DNA from: Fibrobacter sp.
GTDB taxonomy: Bacteria; Fibrobacterota; Fibrobacteria; Fibrobacterales; Fibrobacteraceae
Direction of reading: 5' to 3'
NCBI RefSeq assembly: GCF_017551775.1
Contig: NZ_JAFZKX010000018.1
Location: 6,761 to 70,760, forward strand
Length of the DNA stretch: 64,000 nucleotides
A program made the position numbers and the translations under genes. The notes below the pieces were generated by a model. The model was not told the origin of the DNA and made no database searches. It saw nothing but the letters and a program-made list of their open reading frames with translations. This document shows, piece by piece, positions 3,987 to 10,258 of this stretch. Position 1 is the stretch's first letter; every line of letters begins with the position of its first letter.

Positions 3987-4021
3987 AAAATGGTTGTTTT
4001 CTGCTAGAAAACAACCATTTT
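3987..4021. terminator. Intrinsic terminator-like hairpin after the VWA gene
   Basis: Perfect 16-bp stem AAAATGGTTGTTTTCT-GCT-AGAAAACAACCATTTT followed by a T run. Confidence 0.7.
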
Positions 4022-4045: not shown

Positions 4046-4072
4046 TTGAAACTCTTACAAATTTGCTATTAT
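4046..4072 (+). promoter_or_regulatory. Putative sigma70-type promoter of the radical SAM operon
   Basis: TTGAAA (4046-4051) and an extended -10 TGcTATTAT (4064-4072); the 15-nt spacer is short. Confidence 0.4.
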
Positions 4073-4109
4073 CCGGTTGAATTTGTGCAAAAAAGAAGGA
4101 ATTGCAAAA

Positions 4110-5465
4110 ATGAAGAATTTTGTCGAATTTAAGCCTTTTTATTCTCATGAGACGGATGTCTACAACCTCAAAGATTTTACTCCTGCTATTGTAGACAAGG
4201 CATATTTGGATAATCTCGGTGTCAAAGTCGCTCCCTCCGAAAGTACCCTCGAGGGCCTTATGCGCGGTTCCAAGGTGTTTATGGAACGCGTCAAGAACAG
4301 GACGGTCATACCCGTATCGAAGCTCTATCTCGAAGAAATCGACCCCGAAAAGGTCCAGACGGAAATCCACAACTACACGGGCCGCTGCCCGACGCTCACC
4401 TTCGAAATCAATCCCATCAAGGGTTGCAATGTCGGCTGCCAGTACTGTCTGGTGACCGACGGCGTGCATGAACAGAAGTTAGTCGCTTACGAGAACTACC
4501 ACCTGTACGTACGCAAACTGCTCGAAGACATGAACGGCGACCCCTGGGGCCCGGTGACCGAAGAGGATATCCACAAGAAGAACGTCCTTTTGCAGGATCT
4601 CGCGACCGCCATCGAGGAGGCTCCGGAGCGCAAGCAGGAAATCGAGGCGAAGATCGTGGAACTGAGCCGCGGCAAGAACTGGAATCATTATTACTACTTC
4701 TCGCCCAAGACGGAAGCGTTCCAGGAACCGACGGTGCAGACCGGCATCGCGCACAGGATTCTGAAGGAATTCATCGAACACTTCAAGAAGCATCCCGATT
4801 CCAATGCGAGGCTTTTTATCGCATCGAAATCCGGCCCTAAGCACCTGCTGTACGAATACGAAGGCGAAACCATCCTCGACCTTTTCGAACAGCTCAAGGG
4901 AAAGATGCAGTTCAACACCAGCGTTTCCATTATGCCCACCGAGTTCAGGAACCTGCTGGAACCTTTTGCGGCTCCCATTGACGAACGCCTGCAATCTGTG
5001 AAGCTGTGCCGTGAACGCGGGATTCAGGCAAACTCGGCGCTTATCCAGCCCATCGTGATGCCGTACCTCACCGACGAACATATCAAGGAATTTTTCGACA
5101 AGCTGCACGATGCGGGCATCATCAACTACAAGCCGGAATTCCTGACCGCCTGCATGGAGAACCTGGCCATGCTCGGGCAATGGCTCGGGCACTTCGACAA
5201 GGATTTGGAACGAGAACTCTACGAAGTCTACCTGAAGCCCAGCAATGCCGACCACCGCAAGCAGCGCGGCCGCACGGCTCCCGAAAGGGAACTCTGCATC
5301 GCCGCCATCAAGCGGATGATGGATTACACGCAGACGCTCGGCATGTCGACCAGCATCTGCTATTGGGTCCGCAAACAGTTGCAGATTCCGAATACCCTCA
5401 TTCCCATCATCAACCAGAATGGATTCCAGTGCCTTGGATACCAGTCCAAGCTGTTCCAGAAATAA
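4110..5465 (+). CDS. Radical SAM protein, spore-photoproduct-lyase-like (COG1533/Rv2578c-like)
   Basis: INPIKGCNVGCQYC (CxxxCxxC), EAFQ, ASKS and LLEPFAAPIDERL match the SPL-like family pattern. ATG 4110 follows an AAGGA SD. Confidence 0.8.
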   Translation: MKNFVEFKPFYSHETDVYNLKDFTPAIVDKAYLDNLGVKVAPSESTLEGLMRGSKVFMERVKNRTVIPVSKLYLEEIDPEKVQTEIHNYTGRCPTLTFEINPIKGCNVGCQYCLVTDGVHEQKLVAYENYHLYVRKLLEDMNGDPWGPVTEEDIHKKNVLLQDLATAIEEAPERKQEIEAKIVELSRGKNWNHYYYFSPKTEAFQEPTVQTGIAHRILKEFIEHFKKHPDSNARLFIASKSGPKHLLYEYEGETILDLFEQLKGKMQFNTSVSIMPTEFRNLLEPFAAPIDERLQSVKLCRERGIQANSALIQPIVMPYLTDEHIKEFFDKLHDAGIINYKPEFLTACMENLAMLGQWLGHFDKDLERELYEVYLKPSNADHRKQRGRTAPERELCIAAIKRMMDYTQTLGMSTSICYWVRKQLQIPNTLIPIINQNGFQCLGYQSKLFQK

Positions 5466-5475
5466 CTGAAGGCTC

Positions 5476-6696
5476 ATGATGACAAAGACGAACTTTTGGG
5501 AAGTCTGTAAAGGATTGTACGGCGACCAGGAAAGCTATTACCACAGGTGGTATCACGAAAAGCCGATGGTCATTACTCCGGAACGCAATGAGGAACTGCG
5601 CGAGATGCACCGCGTGCTCTACAAGTGCGTTGAATACATGGCGGCAAACTATGCCGAATTTACGGACAAGTATATGCCGCTTTCCGAAAAGGAAATGGAA
5701 ATCCTCGAATACCAGAGCAAGTACCCTTTTCTGGCGGGAACGTTCCGCCCAGATTACCTCGTTACCGACGACGGCCAACTCAAGCTCTGTGAGATTACGA
5801 GCCGGTTTTTCGGGCACGGGATATTCATGTCGTATTTCGCCGAGGCCGCAGCCAACAAGTTCATGGAAAAACATCCCGGCTGCCACAGGGAATCGCTTTA
5901 CGAGCAGATGATGCAGAGTGCATTGGAAATTGTCGGCGACAAGGACGAAATTTTTGTGCTCAAGAGTTCTGACAAGACTTCCGAAATCAAGTTGTACAAG
6001 CCTTTCTACGAACACTTCGGAAAAAAGGTCACCATCTTGGAAGCCGATGAGGTCGAAGCCCGCATTGACGATTGGAACGGAAAATTCGTCATCAGCGCAT
6101 TGAACCAGATGGACATCCTGAGTTATTCCATGGACACCATCAAGGCCATGATTGATTCCCAAATGTACAACGATTTCCGCACGGTATTCGTGATACACGA
6201 CAAACGGTTCATGCAGCTCTGGTACACGCCCGAATTTACGCAGAAGTTCTTGTCGGAAAAGGAGGCGGAATTCCTGAGGGCGCATGCCATCGAGACCTAC
6301 ATTTGCAATGACAAGGCTTCGGCTGGCATTCTAGAAAAAGCGTATGCGAACAAGGACGCCTACATCCTCAAACATTTCCGCTTGGGCAAGAGCGAAAAGG
6401 TCTATGCGGGTCCGCTGACAAGCGAAAGCGATTGGAAGGCGCTCTTTGACGGGGGAGCCGTTAAGGACATGATCATCCAGCCGTTCCTGCACCAGAAAAC
6501 ATACCGCACCGTATGGGAAGGGACTCCTTTTGATGATTACGTTTGCGGCATGATGCTTTGCATCGATGACAAGTATTTCGACTCGGGGCTTTTCCGTACG
6601 TCCAGTTGCCCGGTGACGAACGTGGTCGACGACAGGAAGGCTTTCCCCATAGTGACGGAAAACGAAAGCATCATTTCTTGCGGGGATGTCCTTTGA
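5476..6696 (+). CDS. ATP-grasp amide ligase, glutathionylspermidine-synthase-like
   Basis: FRPDYLV..LKLCEITSRF, NDFRTVFVIHDKR, YILKHFRLGKSEKVYAG, MIIQPF. Starts 10 nt after the radical SAM stop. Confidence 0.65.
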   Translation: MMTKTNFWEVCKGLYGDQESYYHRWYHEKPMVITPERNEELREMHRVLYKCVEYMAANYAEFTDKYMPLSEKEMEILEYQSKYPFLAGTFRPDYLVTDDGQLKLCEITSRFFGHGIFMSYFAEAAANKFMEKHPGCHRESLYEQMMQSALEIVGDKDEIFVLKSSDKTSEIKLYKPFYEHFGKKVTILEADEVEARIDDWNGKFVISALNQMDILSYSMDTIKAMIDSQMYNDFRTVFVIHDKRFMQLWYTPEFTQKFLSEKEAEFLRAHAIETYICNDKASAGILEKAYANKDAYILKHFRLGKSEKVYAGPLTSESDWKALFDGGAVKDMIIQPFLHQKTYRTVWEGTPFDDYVCGMMLCIDDKYFDSGLFRTSSCPVTNVVDDRKAFPIVTENESIISCGDVL

Positions 6697-7397
6697 TTAT
6701 CGCCGGAAACCAGCCTTATTTTTTTCCGTATATCGGATTCTGGCAGCTCGTCAGTGCTGCCGACCTGTTCCTGATTGGGGACAACTACAACTTCATCAAA
6801 CGTGGATGGATTCAAAGAAACAGGATTCTTATCAACGGCAAGCCGTTTTTCTTTGGACTGGAAGTGAAGCACATTACGTCTTTCAGGAAAATAAACGAGA
6901 CTGAATTTGTCGATTTCGATGTCGCCCAAAAACTGAATACCGTTTATCGCGCCTACCGCAAGGCACCGCAGTTCGATGCGGGTTATAACCTCGTGAAGAC
7001 GATTTTGGACAATCCGGAACGCAATGTCGCGGAGTTCCTTTTCCAGTCGATAAAGGATGTTTGCCGGTTCCTCGGGATAAACACGAAATTCATGAGAAGT
7101 TCCGAAATACCGGGCAACGACAACTACAAGCGGGAATACCGCATTTACGATTTCTGTCACCGGCTCGGGGGAGATACTTATCTCAACGCCGTAGGCGGGC
7201 AGGATCTGTATCATTTTGATGACTTTGAAAAACACGGAGTTACGCTGAAATTCATTCATCCCAATATCCGGCCCTACAAGCAGTTCTATAACGAATTCGT
7301 TCCGGGGCTTTCCATTTTGGACGTCATCATGTTCAATTCGGTGAATACCATAAAGAACATGCTTGAAGACTGCAGTTTTATTGAGAAGCAGAAATAG
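6693..7397 (+). CDS. WbqC-family protein (putative aminoacyl/glycyl transferase)
   Basis: QPYFFPYIGFWQLVSAADLF, GWIQRNRI, YLNAVGGQDLY, LSILDVIMF. TTG start at 6693 overlaps the upstream TGA (TTGA). Confidence 0.85.
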   Translation: MIIAGNQPYFFPYIGFWQLVSAADLFLIGDNYNFIKRGWIQRNRILINGKPFFFGLEVKHITSFRKINETEFVDFDVAQKLNTVYRAYRKAPQFDAGYNLVKTILDNPERNVAEFLFQSIKDVCRFLGINTKFMRSSEIPGNDNYKREYRIYDFCHRLGGDTYLNAVGGQDLYHFDDFEKHGVTLKFIHPNIRPYKQFYNEFVPGLSILDVIMFNSVNTIKNMLEDCSFIEKQK

Positions 7398-7409: not shown

Positions 7410-8915
7410 ATGAAAGGGGAATCTTTTCAAAACCATTCTTTACGCTTGTTGATTGCAACATCCGCTTTCGTCGCCCTAGTATTAGGAGCGTGTGGCGACG
7501 ATGATCCCAGTATCCTTTTGCCTGGAGATTCCAATTCCGTAGATGAAATTTCAAGTAGCATTGAACCGTATTCATCGGTGGAAGAAAGCTCCAGCAGCGC
7601 TAAGAGTTCTAGTTCCGTAATCACCGCTTGGGATTACATGAATCCAGGATTGTCTTATGGCGAACTTGTGGACTCTCGCGATAATAAGGTCTACAAGACC
7701 ATAGAGTTTGACGGAAAGGTATGGATGGCGGAAAACCTGAACTACGATGTGGGCGATACGCTCCATACCTGGTGTGCCCGCGAAAATTGCGATTTGTATG
7801 GACGTCTGTACACGTATGCTGTGGCGATGGATTCTGCTAAATCCGGCTGTGGCTTTATGACGGTTTGCTCGGTACCTAAAAACTTCCAGGGAATTTGCCC
7901 TGAAGGGTGGCATGTTCTTGAATATGAGGAGATAGACGGCCCCGTCTTCTATCAAAAAAATCTTTTCGGCGCAGGCGCCCCGAAATGGGAGGATTCCCTT
8001 AATACGAATGTTTATGGGCTTACTTTTTTGCCAGCGGGCTTTATGCGCTATAGTATGGCCGGTACATCGAATCTGGAAACCTGGAATGCATATTTTTGGA
8101 CAACCATGGAGTTGTCGGATTCTTTGGCACGCGCCTATATGCGGAATTCGAAAGTGTCAGATGCTATATATGCGCCGACCAAGGCTTCGGGACTTTCTGT
8201 CCGTTGCATAAAGAACTACGAGCGACATGAGACACTTGTTGATCCGTCGACTGTGAAGAAGGGGGAATTTACGGATGCCCGTGACGAGCAGACATATAAG
8301 ACGGTGACTATCGGAAGGCAGACGTGGATGGCGGAAAATCTCAATTACGCCGATAGCGTAAAGACGCCTGTTCTTGAAGGACGCGTGAAATCGGCATACT
8401 TGGATGATCCGGATTCGAATAAATTTTATGGGCGACTTTACACTTGGGCTGCGGCTATGGATTCCGGGGCTTTCGACTATTCCTTCTTGACGAAACATGT
8501 TAGTCAGAAAAATATTCGCGGGATTTGCCCTGAAGGGTGGCACTTGCCGAACCGCGTCGAATTCGCCAAACTGCTGGATGCTGTTGGTGGCGGGTACAAG
8601 AACGCGCATGCGCTGAAGTCTAGCGTTGGCTGGGACAAAGATCCCGGTGACGACGAATACGGTTTTGCGCTAGTGGGCGCAGGGCGTGTTGATACAACAG
8701 ATAATGACATTTACGCCACATACGGGGGCTCGGCATTCTTGTGGACTGCAGAACCTTATTATGATATCATTCCTTCTTTCATAGAAAAGCGTGCTCACGT
8801 CTACACTCTGGACGAACGCCATGTGGTATATTCCGAATATATGGCCGATACGGCCGTGTTCAAGTCGGGCTTTAACTCTATCCGCTGTCTAAAAGACGAA
8901 ATTGCGGATAAGTAA
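7410..8915 (+). CDS. Lipoprotein with two Fibrobacter succinogenes major paralogous (FISUMP/Fib_succ_major) domains
   Basis: Lipobox LGAC and Ser-rich linker. Two copies of D.RD...YKT..IG.Q.WMAENLNY / YGRLYT / GICPEGWH / G.SVRC(I/L)K. Confidence 0.9.
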   Translation: MKGESFQNHSLRLLIATSAFVALVLGACGDDDPSILLPGDSNSVDEISSSIEPYSSVEESSSSAKSSSSVITAWDYMNPGLSYGELVDSRDNKVYKTIEFDGKVWMAENLNYDVGDTLHTWCARENCDLYGRLYTYAVAMDSAKSGCGFMTVCSVPKNFQGICPEGWHVLEYEEIDGPVFYQKNLFGAGAPKWEDSLNTNVYGLTFLPAGFMRYSMAGTSNLETWNAYFWTTMELSDSLARAYMRNSKVSDAIYAPTKASGLSVRCIKNYERHETLVDPSTVKKGEFTDARDEQTYKTVTIGRQTWMAENLNYADSVKTPVLEGRVKSAYLDDPDSNKFYGRLYTWAAAMDSGAFDYSFLTKHVSQKNIRGICPEGWHLPNRVEFAKLLDAVGGGYKNAHALKSSVGWDKDPGDDEYGFALVGAGRVDTTDNDIYATYGGSAFLWTAEPYYDIIPSFIEKRAHVYTLDERHVVYSEYMADTAVFKSGFNSIRCLKDEIADK

Positions 8916-8983: not shown

Positions 8984-10258
8984 ATGGCAAGAGCTTTGAT
9001 TATCGGTTGTGGCGCTGTCGCCACGGTTGCTATCAAGAAATGCTGCACGGCAAGCGAAGTGTTCAGTGAAATCTGCATCGCTAGCCGTCACCGCGAAAAC
9101 TGCGAAAAGCTGGCACAGGAACTGCGCCCGAATACTAAGACGGTCATTACGACTGCCGCGGTGGATGCCGACAAGGCTGAAAATGTCGTGAAACTCATCA
9201 AGGAATACAAGCCCGACCTCGTGATGAACATCGCGCTCCCGTACCAGGACCTCGCCATCATGGACGCCTGCCTTGAATGTGGCGTGAACTACATGGACAC
9301 GGCGAACTACGAGCCCGAAAACATCGACGATCCGGAATGGCGCAAGGTCTACGACAAGCGCTGCAAGGAACAGGGCTTCAGCGCCTACTTCGACTACAGC
9401 TGGCAGTGGGCTTATAAAGAAAAGTTTGAAAAGGCCGGCCTCACGGCACTGTTGGGTTCCGGCTTCGACCCGGGTGTTTCTCAGGCCTACTGCGCCTACG
9501 CTTTGAAGCACCAGTTCGACACCATCGAGGAAATCGACATTCTCGACTGCAATGGTGGCGATCACGGCTACAAGTTTGCGACGAACTTCAACCCCGAAAT
9601 CAACCTCCGCGAAGTCTCCGCCCCGGGCAGCTACTGGGACACCGACGAGAACGGCAAGGGCCACTGGGTTGAAATCCCCGCCATGAGCATCAAGCGCGTG
9701 TACAACTTCGACCAGGTCGGCCAGAAGGACATGTACTTGCTGCACCACGAAGAAATTGAATCTCTCGCCCAGAACATCCCGGGCGTGAAGCGCATCCGCT
9801 TCTTCATGACGTTCGGCCAGAGCTATCTGGACCACATGCGTTGCCTCGAAGACGTGGGCATGCTCTCCACCCAGCCCATCAAGTTCCAGGGCCAGGACAT
9901 CGTGCCTATCCAGTTCTTGAAGGCTCTCCTTCCGGACCCGGCAAGCCTCGGCCCCCGCACGGTGGGCAAGACCAACATCGGTTGTATCTTCAAGGGCAAG
10001 AAGGACGGCAAGGACAAGACGTACTACCTGTACAACGTCTGCGACCACCAGGAATGCTACAAGGAACTCGGCAGCCAGGCTATCGCCTACACGACTGGCG
10101 TTCCGGCCATGTGCGGCGCCATGATGGTGCTCACCGGCAAGTGGAACAAGCCGGGCGTGCATACTGTCGAAGAGTTCGACCCCGATCCGTTCATGGAAGC
10201 CCTCACCAAGTACGGCCTCCCGTGGCAGGAAAACTTTAACCCGGTGCTTGTGGATTAA
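8984..10258 (+). CDS. Saccharopine dehydrogenase family protein, probable carboxy(nor)spermidine dehydrogenase
   Basis: IIGCGAVA Rossmann motif, NIALPYQDLAIMDAC, GSGFDPG, DILDCNGGDHGY.FATNFNPEINLRE, YTTGVPAM. Adjacent to speA. Confidence 0.9.
   Translation: MARALIIGCGAVATVAIKKCCTASEVFSEICIASRHRENCEKLAQELRPNTKTVITTAAVDADKAENVVKLIKEYKPDLVMNIALPYQDLAIMDACLECGVNYMDTANYEPENIDDPEWRKVYDKRCKEQGFSAYFDYSWQWAYKEKFEKAGLTALLGSGFDPGVSQAYCAYALKHQFDTIEEIDILDCNGGDHGYKFATNFNPEINLREVSAPGSYWDTDENGKGHWVEIPAMSIKRVYNFDQVGQKDMYLLHHEEIESLAQNIPGVKRIRFFMTFGQSYLDHMRCLEDVGMLSTQPIKFQGQDIVPIQFLKALLPDPASLGPRTVGKTNIGCIFKGKKDGKDKTYYLYNVCDHQECYKELGSQAIAYTTGVPAMCGAMMVLTGKWNKPGVHTVEEFDPDPFMEALTKYGLPWQENFNPVLVD

Follow-up and report, generated by a model that had tools for sequence, protein, structure and literature searches.

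The side chains of surface sugars decide how phages, hosts and neighbours see gut bacteria, and the enzymes that install the unusual ones are mostly unknown. In the O-antigen clusters of Escherichia coli O121 and Shigella dysenteriae type 7, which specify Qui4N carrying N-acetylglycine, a WbqC family protein has the sugar 4-aminotransferase VioA as its partner; a role for WbqC in these clusters is a proposal only, and neither a radical SAM enzyme nor an AnkG_N ligase is known from them. An amide-linked amino acid has been documented in the O antigen of E. coli O121 (PMC7685785). In fungi, the E-64 pathway combines the Fe/2-oxoglutarate (2OG) oxygenase Cp1A, the ATP-grasp protein Cp1B and an amide bond synthetase, Cp1D (PDB 9cjn; PMC12568646). 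Cp1B converts a non-amino dicarboxylic acid into an acyl phosphate, which is then joined to an amino acid, and is related to YgiC/YjfC and the glutathione synthetases at the level of fold only (PMC12568646). Here I describe three adjoining genes (positions 4110 to 7397) that bring a radical S-adenosylmethionine (SAM) enzyme, a Cp1B-like ATP-grasp ligase and a WbqC protein together in a 64,000-nt window of the Fibrobacter sp. contig NZ_JAFZKX010000018.1 (GCF_017551775.1); all coordinates without a locus or contig prefix are positions within this window.

With a probability of roughly 60%, I read this trio as the enzymatic core of an accessory surface-glycan tailoring operon that is almost confined to anaerobes of the rumen and the herbivore gut, and the side chain that it puts on a sugar of the surface coat is most likely an unusual acid or amino acid. 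The layout of the genes, their families, the catalytic residues of the ligase, the co-occurrence of the three genes, their glycan context, an aerobic sister cassette and a patchy distribution across phyla are the observations on which this reading is built. The literature searched contained no paper that describes the trio; an earlier, sequence-only reading of this DNA knew of no described pathway with these three genes.

A recurrent three-gene unit in polysaccharide loci

All three genes lie on the plus strand. The first (4110..5465) encodes a radical SAM enzyme of 451 aa, identified by PF04055, an alignment and an AlphaFold2 (AF2) model; the second (5476..6696) encodes an ATP-grasp protein of 406 aa, by homology to PDB 9cjn a putative carboxylate-amine ligase of the AnkG_N/Cp1B type; and the third (6693..7397) encodes a WbqC family protein (PF08889) of 234 aa that starts with TTG at 6693. 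The radical SAM frame is preceded by GAAGGA at 4095-4100 and closes with TAA at 5463-5465, and a 10-nt gap holding GAAGG separates it from the ATG of the ligase gene at 5476. The ligase stop TGA (6694-6696) overlaps the WbqC start as TTGA, and the WbqC frame ends with TAG at 7395-7397. The sequence-only reading had described this arrangement of same-strand genes, gap and overlap correctly. Its three family labels were about right at the level of radical SAM, ATP-grasp and WbqC, and failed where they went further and likened the first protein to spore photoproduct lyase (SPL) and the second to glutathionylspermidine (GSP) synthase.

Scanning one genome per GTDB species yielded 130 relatives of the ATP-grasp protein, and 80 loci were kept. 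The radical SAM gene was present in all 73 loci with enough upstream DNA; in 75 loci it adjoined the ATP-grasp gene on the same strand, and 2 loci had it on the opposite strand. WbqC was present in 77 of the 78 loci with enough downstream DNA, directly downstream in 71. The trio is a recurrent unit, far from chance, so the claim of a joint pathway, which had been staked on the three genes occurring together in other genomes, was not refuted. A 4-nt stop/start overlap between the ATP-grasp and WbqC genes was kept in 59 of 65 loci (ATGA in 49, TTGA in 5 and GTGA in 5), which argues for coupled translation of the two proteins and perhaps for a complex between them; the co-translation claimed earlier thus gains a conserved overlap, with the coupling itself still a matter of inference from gene layout.

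Neighbouring genes, clustered over 81 loci, placed the trio in polysaccharide loci in most cases, often between a WcaJ gene and a DegT gene under an UpxY antiterminator. A glycosyltransferase of family 2 (GT2) was found in 50 of the 81 loci and a DegT/WecE-like sugar 4-aminotransferase in 38, followed by a Wzx flippase (17), a 'sugar-transfer associated' ATP-grasp protein (ATPgrasp_ST; 8), a cytoplasmic PstS-like protein (8), UpxY (7) and a WcaJ-type priming transferase (6). The cultured Prevotella sp. P6B1 (locus L076) has a complete locus, UpxY-WcaJ-rSAM-ATPgrasp-WbqC-DegT-ATPgrasp_ST-Wzx-acyltransferase-GT2-Wzy-GT2-GT1 (rSAM being the radical SAM gene), whose gene content is that of a classic Wzx/Wzy capsule locus and which includes the trio. 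As a cultured carrier, this strain makes the hypothesis testable.

The PstS-like (PBP_like_2) protein lacks a signal peptide and occurs in or beside the cassette in 8 loci from three phyla (L063:9135-9989, L016:4890-5795, L003:5632-6483 and five more); in L063 its gene lies between the radical SAM and ATP-grasp genes, and it is absent from the window genome. Its ligand might be an anionic substrate.

Carriers of the trio include Fibrobacter, many Bacteroidales, Prevotellaceae, Paludibacteraceae and Muribaculaceae, Lachnospiraceae, Ruminococcus, one metagenome-assembled genome (MAG) of the Erysipelotrichaceae and one Treponema, so that Fibrobacterota, Bacteroidota and Bacillota are among the carrier phyla, and nearly all carriers are of herbivore rumen or hindgut origin. 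Within the Fibrobacteraceae, 15 of 121 genomes have the trio, all 15 of them of the genus Fibrobacter. The tree of the radical SAM protein contains a clade with 100/99 support that mixes Bacillota, Prevotellaceae and Fibrobacter, and two MAGs labelled Fibrobacter (L061 and L077) are nested among Prevotellaceae, with a radical SAM identity to the window protein of 74% against 84-98% for other Fibrobacter. The mixing of phyla indicates horizontal exchange or, for these two MAGs, possibly mis-binning, the alternative for them being a second, independent acquisition.

The ATP-grasp ligase and the WbqC protein

The middle protein matched fungal Cp1B (PDB 9cjn) with a phmmer E value of 3.7e-6 as a single sequence and of 2.7e-18 as a family profile (profile positions 25-372). 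Homologues that are 88-95% identical to it carry a precomputed match to PF28486 (AnkG_N), and the window protein itself had no match in the Pfam and NCBIfam copies scanned, of which the Pfam copy lacks PF28486. The residues responsible for acyl-phosphate formation in Cp1B are R139, D141, E163 and N165 (PMC12568646). Aligned with these are R91-P-D93 (nt 5746-5754) and E106-I-T108 (nt 5791-5799) of the window protein, so that three of the four are kept as invariant R91, D93 and E106, and N165 is replaced by an invariant Thr108; in addition, YILKHFRLGKSEKV (nt 6361-6402) aligns with the ATP-loop region of Cp1B. Going by this homology, the protein is placed in the AnkG_N/Cp1B branch of ligases that resemble eukaryotic glutathione synthetase, and is predicted to be an ATP-dependent carboxylate-amine ligase. 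This replaces the earlier label of a GSP-synthase-like protein; GSP synthetase proper was rejected, with no match to its family models in Pfam or NCBIfam. No fusions of the ATP-grasp protein with partner domains were found, and longer homologues carry only low-complexity inserts. No paper describing a bacterial AnkG_N ligase was found in the searched literature.

With the E-64 pathway and with AnkG of the NK13650 pathway, the window system therefore shares a homologous ligase with its catalytic Arg, Asp and Glu and a Lys/Gly-rich ATP loop, and it shares with the E-64 pathway the logic of one oxidative enzyme and two amide-forming steps. It differs in being bacterial, anaerobic and of the polysaccharide-locus type, in having a radical SAM enzyme as the oxidative partner and WbqC instead of an ANL-family synthetase as the second one, in the invariant Thr at the position of N165, and in its acceptor amine, which here is probably an amino sugar. 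Ligases of the Cp1B type are already used as biocatalysts, and relatives from bacteria that act on other substrates might be of use as well.

The third protein matched PF08889 (WbqC) with 199.9 bits against a cut-off of 21.3 over positions 1-217 of the 218-position model, and its AF2 model had a predicted local distance difference test score (pLDDT) of 92.9. TyrRS, class-I LysRS and LarE (HUP-like Rossmann folds) recurred among the structural matches, at a probability of at most 0.41 and a template modelling (TM) score of at most 0.32, a hint of a nucleotide-binding fold that is too weak to build on. No characterised WbqC member or WbqC activity was found in the searched literature. WbqC genes were present in 99 of 201 Bacteroidota genomes, and among the 30 best loci DegT was next door in 9 and a GT2 of the same type in 9; BT2884/BT2885 of Bacteroides thetaiotaomicron is such a WbqC/DegT pair (PMC10434189). 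Since WbqC is common without the radical SAM/ATP-grasp pair, the dependence is one-sided: the pair needs WbqC, and WbqC does not need the pair. The cassette is best filed as a variant of amino-sugar tailoring modules, with probably new radical chemistry.

WbqC is also known from a Streptomyces operon with the order ProRSx-GT4-WbqC-LmbE-tRNA (PMC10404621). Dedicated tRNA genes were considered as cassette partners and rejected, as a tRNA-Glu(CTC) gene was found in one syntenic group of Bacteroidales only and none in 50 other loci. In that group it precedes a gene for a RhaT-like transporter, ~1 kb upstream of the cassette (L001:5552-5624, L021:7590-7662, L022, L024, L027, L032, L033 and L036), and its strand varies between loci; it either marks an integration site or is there by chance.

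The radical SAM enzyme and an aerobic sister cassette

The radical SAM protein is the best conserved of the three (57-98% identity across phyla) and matched PF04055 with 35.9 bits against a cut-off of 29.5. Its CX3CX2C motif at C106/C110/C113 (nt 4425-4448) was invariant in 32 aligned sequences, as were four additional cysteines (C93, C300, C417 and C441), which are candidates for an auxiliary iron-sulfur cluster. After the cluster motif there is an optional charged helical insert of ~44 aa (nt 4539-4670, residues ~144-187), which is present in the clade of Fibrobacter, Bacillota and Prevotellaceae and absent from most other Bacteroidales copies, and so marks two cassette lineages. The family is very small: among 1.84 billion representative proteins there were 183 relatives at E<=1e-3 and 33 at E<=1e-30, many of them fragments.

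The sequence-only reading had called this protein SPL-like, and a DNA-repair lyase of the SPL kind, acting independently of its neighbours, is one alternative to a role in glycan tailoring. Sequence searches of the PDB with the radical SAM enzyme gave nothing useful, and the best fold match of the AF2 model (pLDDT 89.8) was indeed an SPL, SplB (4fhc), with an E value of 2.5e-5, a probability of 1.00, TM scores of 0.39/0.50, a root-mean-square deviation of 9 A and 15% identity, values of a related but distant protein; the two share a CX3CX2C radical SAM core within an 'NPxxGCxxxCxYC'-type motif. Weak matches to 'DNA repair photolyase'-type families of NCBIfam point in the same direction, but NF038135 (Rv2578c) scored 39.7 bits against a cut-off of 430 and NF033668 (PA0069) 38.3 bits against 360, both over C-terminal stretches only. 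The SPL family model PF20903 did not match the window protein at E<=0.01, nor did it match anything in four cassette-bearing genomes; it gave 360-605 bits in 10 of 31 Bacillota genomes. In SPL, a radical-relay tyrosine stands directly after the third cluster cysteine, and the H-atom donor is a cysteine (Cys141 in Bacillus subtilis). An hhalign comparison of the family with four true SPLs reached a probability of 10%, so that positional equivalence is weak; within this alignment, Leu114 (CQYC-L114) lies opposite the relay Tyr (CxYC-Y), and there is no Cys in the segment aligned to FEAACTSDP. The window protein further differs from SplB by ~100 extra N-terminal residues, the optional 44-aa insert and the four extra invariant cysteines, and its cassette has no DNA-repair context. 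As judged from these models and alignments, it is not a member of the SPL family, and SPL is only its nearest solved fold. Together with the constant linkage of its gene to those of the ligase and WbqC, this leaves next to no room for the independent photoproduct lyase, the case that the sequence-only reading had named against its own proposal; I regard this alternative as largely refuted.

Distant relatives of the radical SAM protein (170-210 bits; L132:1874-6752 and L135:1370-6651) likewise adjoin no repair genes: some lie beside genes for an Asp/Glu racemase-like protein, a second radical SAM enzyme and a glutamine amidotransferase, others beside genes for an adenylation-carrier didomain, a thioesterase and a phosphopantetheinyl transferase (PPTase), and some contexts are uninformative. 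These contexts are heterogeneous; they suggest substrates that are small molecules and not DNA, without naming the substrate, and the loci may belong to further undescribed small-molecule pathways.

Radical SAM enzymes and ATP-grasp ligases are also common tailors of ribosomally synthesised and post-translationally modified peptides (RiPPs), and the two could in principle act on such a peptide. I consider this very improbable, as there is no conserved small open reading frame (ORF) in or beside the operon, the gaps between its genes being 10 nt and -4 nt, the ATP-grasp protein falls in the glutathione-synthetase-like and not in the graspetide branch, no SPASM or RRE domain was found in a Pfam scan of the window protein, and the context is one of polysaccharide genes.

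A more informative comparison came from the WbqC loci. In 4 of the 30 WbqC loci, an AnkG_N ATP-grasp gene, whose product is 32-34% identical to the window ligase, follows right after WbqC, and this ATP-grasp subfamily occurs in marine aerobes. Tenacibaculum and Roseivirga show the order DegT-Wzx-WbqC-ATPgrasp-PhyH-GT2-TauD/CsiD, and Marinomonas has the same gene set rearranged amid sulfotransferases and sugar epimerases (L137:3700-10955, L139:3647-10960 and L138:4916-11005; short form L129:9126-12819). As in the gut cassette, the WbqC and ATP-grasp genes overlap or abut, the partners are a DegT, a Wzx and a GT2 of the same kind, and the context is a glycan locus; WbqC is 29-30% identical to that of the window. 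The aerobic cassette differs in that WbqC precedes the ATP-grasp gene, in that its hosts are aerobic marine bacteria, and in that two O2-dependent Fe(II)/2OG dioxygenases take the place of the one radical SAM enzyme of the rumen cassette. It is well known that in anaerobes radical SAM enzymes often take over from oxygenases. With a matching set of partners and dioxygenases in the place of the radical SAM enzyme, the latter therefore looks like an anaerobic stand-in for them, which would carry out an oxygen-free C-H functionalisation of the side chain or its precursor, and this pairing narrows the job of the radical enzyme. The O antigens of Flavobacteriia contain amides of 4-amino sugars with (S)-2-hydroxyglutaric acid (Flexibacter/Tenacibaculum maritimum) or malic acid (Flavobacterium psychrophilum) (PMC4052302). 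Such hydroxy-dicarboxylic amides are the kind of product to be expected of a DegT enzyme, a dioxygenase or radical enzyme and a dicarboxylate-activating ATP-grasp ligase, and are taken here as a lead only.

From these comparisons I infer the chemical steps, their order and the identity of the side chain as follows. A DegT-type aminotransferase, which is encoded beside the cassette elsewhere and probably on another contig in the window genome, would provide a nucleoside diphosphate (NDP)-4-amino-4,6-dideoxy sugar. The Cp1B-like ATP-grasp ligase would turn a carboxylic acid, probably a dicarboxylic or otherwise non-standard one as for Cp1B and AnkG, into an acyl phosphate and then into an amide with an amine. 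WbqC would act on the amino sugar, where it most likely forms, or helps to form, the amide between the sugar nitrogen and the acid or amino-acid unit. The radical SAM enzyme would functionalise a C-H bond of this unit independently of oxygen, by the equivalent of a hydroxylation, a desaturation or a rearrangement, a job that in the aerobic cassette would fall to the PhyH and TauD/CsiD Fe(II)/2OG dioxygenases. A dedicated GT2 would finally place the decorated sugar in the repeat unit, and Wzx would flip the repeat unit. The sequence-only reading had already proposed a radical-modified aminoacyl or peptidyl unit on a glycan; loci elsewhere with a 4-aminotransferase, a flippase and a GT2 lend support to the glycan, and the chemistry is still deduced from gene content.

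In its most far-reaching form, the proposal is that a new and very small radical SAM family performs PhyH/TauD-type C-H functionalisation without oxygen, within an undescribed and widespread DegT-WbqC-AnkG_N-GT2 pathway of amino-sugar acylation that places a modified dicarboxylic or amino-acid side chain on capsule sugars, and that WbqC is an amide-forming or acyl-transferring enzyme of a new fold that acts in a complex with the ATP-grasp ligase. I offer this combination as tentative, with odds clearly below even. The cassette unites WbqC with the first glycan-linked Cp1B/AnkG-family ligases of bacteria and with a radical SAM clade that has almost no relatives.

Neighbours and partner genes in the window genome

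Upstream of the operon lies a large gene for a VWA surface protein, which is closed by a terminator-like hairpin with a 16-bp stem (3987..4021, strand not assigned) that sets the 5' limit of the operon. A candidate extended -10 element, TGcTATTAT, follows on the plus strand (4064..4072); TTGAAA at 4046-4051 is separated from it by a short spacer of 15 nt, because of which a consensus scan did not return the pair. No strong internal terminator was found in a terminator scan of the operon. This putative promoter region is not conserved, as homology to the window begins only at 4107 in the relative G002. The single promoter claimed earlier is thus consistent with the hairpin, the -10-like element and the uninterrupted operon, and consistency is as far as the sequence goes. 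On the 3' side, the gene for a FISUMP-domain lipoprotein (7410..8915, plus strand) starts 12 nt past WbqC, with an AGGAG that overlaps the WbqC stop, and is probably co-transcribed with the trio. It is not a conserved part of the cassette: none but the nearest Fibrobacter relatives (L008, L010 and L092) have it behind the trio, and it is missing from L009, from L065 and from every other phylum.

These flanking genes bear on the possibility that the decorated glycan ends up on proteins, such as the FISUMP lipoprotein or the giant VWA protein, by O-glycosylation, and not in a capsule or a lipopolysaccharide-like polymer. In the window, surface-protein genes flank the operon and are probably co-transcribed with it, and the best NCBIfam match of the flippase cluster was an O-glycosylation flippase model. 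However, the flanking genes are not conserved with the cassette, the flippase match of 329 bits is far under its cut-off of 720, and loci like that of Prevotella sp. P6B1 hold Wzy and UpxY, which are typical of capsules, so that I regard protein glycosylation as quite improbable.

Further downstream there is a gene for a saccharopine-dehydrogenase-like protein (8984-10258) that scored 381 bits to carboxynorspermidine synthase, for which the NCBIfam cut-off is 800, and then SpeA, which makes agmatine. Both lie 1.6-3 kb downstream of the trio, and they invite the idea that the trio makes a free small molecule, either an E-64-like pseudopeptide or a conjugate of an acid, an amino acid and an amine, with a polyamine or agmatine possibly serving as the amine. 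The homology to Cp1B, and the E-64 logic of an oxygenase, an ATP-grasp enzyme and a second amide-forming enzyme, would fit such a product, as would the lack of adjoining glycan genes in the window and a dioxygenase variant of the cassette outside glycan loci. Most of the 81 loci are nonetheless embedded in polysaccharide loci, WbqC is a family of such loci, and the trio is not accompanied by an exporter or resistance gene. A link between the polyamine genes and the cassette was rejected, as they do not accompany it outside Fibrobacter and are present in Fibrobacter without the trio; the gene at 8984-10258 is 97-98% conserved across Fibrobacter genomes, including trio-less ones. The nearby polyamine genes are Fibrobacter housekeeping genes and not partners of the cassette, and a free small molecule appears unlikely as its product.

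For surface-glycan tailoring, the sugar partners must be sought elsewhere in the window genome, which has one WbqC gene, that of the trio, and three true DegT genes at other sites. A contig of the same genome (C40) contains genes for a GT2 (C40:53296-54264), an ATP-grasp-like protein of 436 aa (C40:63558-64868), a DegT enzyme (C40:64876-65988) and a Wzx flippase (C40:66176-67414). This GT2 is 41% identical to the cassette-linked GT2, and with the counterparts in the aerobic cassettes the C40 DegT shares 39-41% and the C40 GT2 30-37% identity. Full-length orthologues of the C40 GT2 (>=57% identity, that is, at least 57%) were found in 6 of the 15 trio-positive Fibrobacter genomes and in none of the sampled trio-negative Fibrobacter, and this restriction to trio-positive Fibrobacter suggests a split arrangement, in which contig C15 carries the trio and C40 its sugar partners. 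The polysaccharide locus on C40 is likely the partner of the trio.

Several points weigh against a role in glycan tailoring, or against parts of it. In the window genome no glycan gene adjoins the trio, whose neighbours are the VWA surface protein, the FISUMP lipoprotein and the polyamine genes. What ties C40 to the trio is co-occurrence in a few lineages, and two genomes of other Fibrobacteraceae genera have a C40-type GT2 without the trio. Three low-GC Bacteroidota genomes (L129-L131) have WbqC-ATPgrasp-PhyH-TauD outside any glycan locus, given which the ligase pair may also make free molecules. The stand-in argument for the radical SAM enzyme draws on positional analogy with no shared sequence, and WbqC gave no significant fold match and no sequence relative in the PDB. 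It is with these points counted in that I arrive at the probability given at the outset.

The surroundings of the polyamine genes also bear on how the cassette moves. In Fibrobacter genomes that lack the trio, the DNA upstream of the conserved carboxynorspermidine-synthase-like gene is unrelated, in one trio-bearing relative the start of the radical SAM gene is exactly where homology to the window sets in, and the insertion spot upstream of 8984-10258 is variable between strains. Genome comparison thus marks the cassette as accessory and mobile, and as horizontally exchanged.

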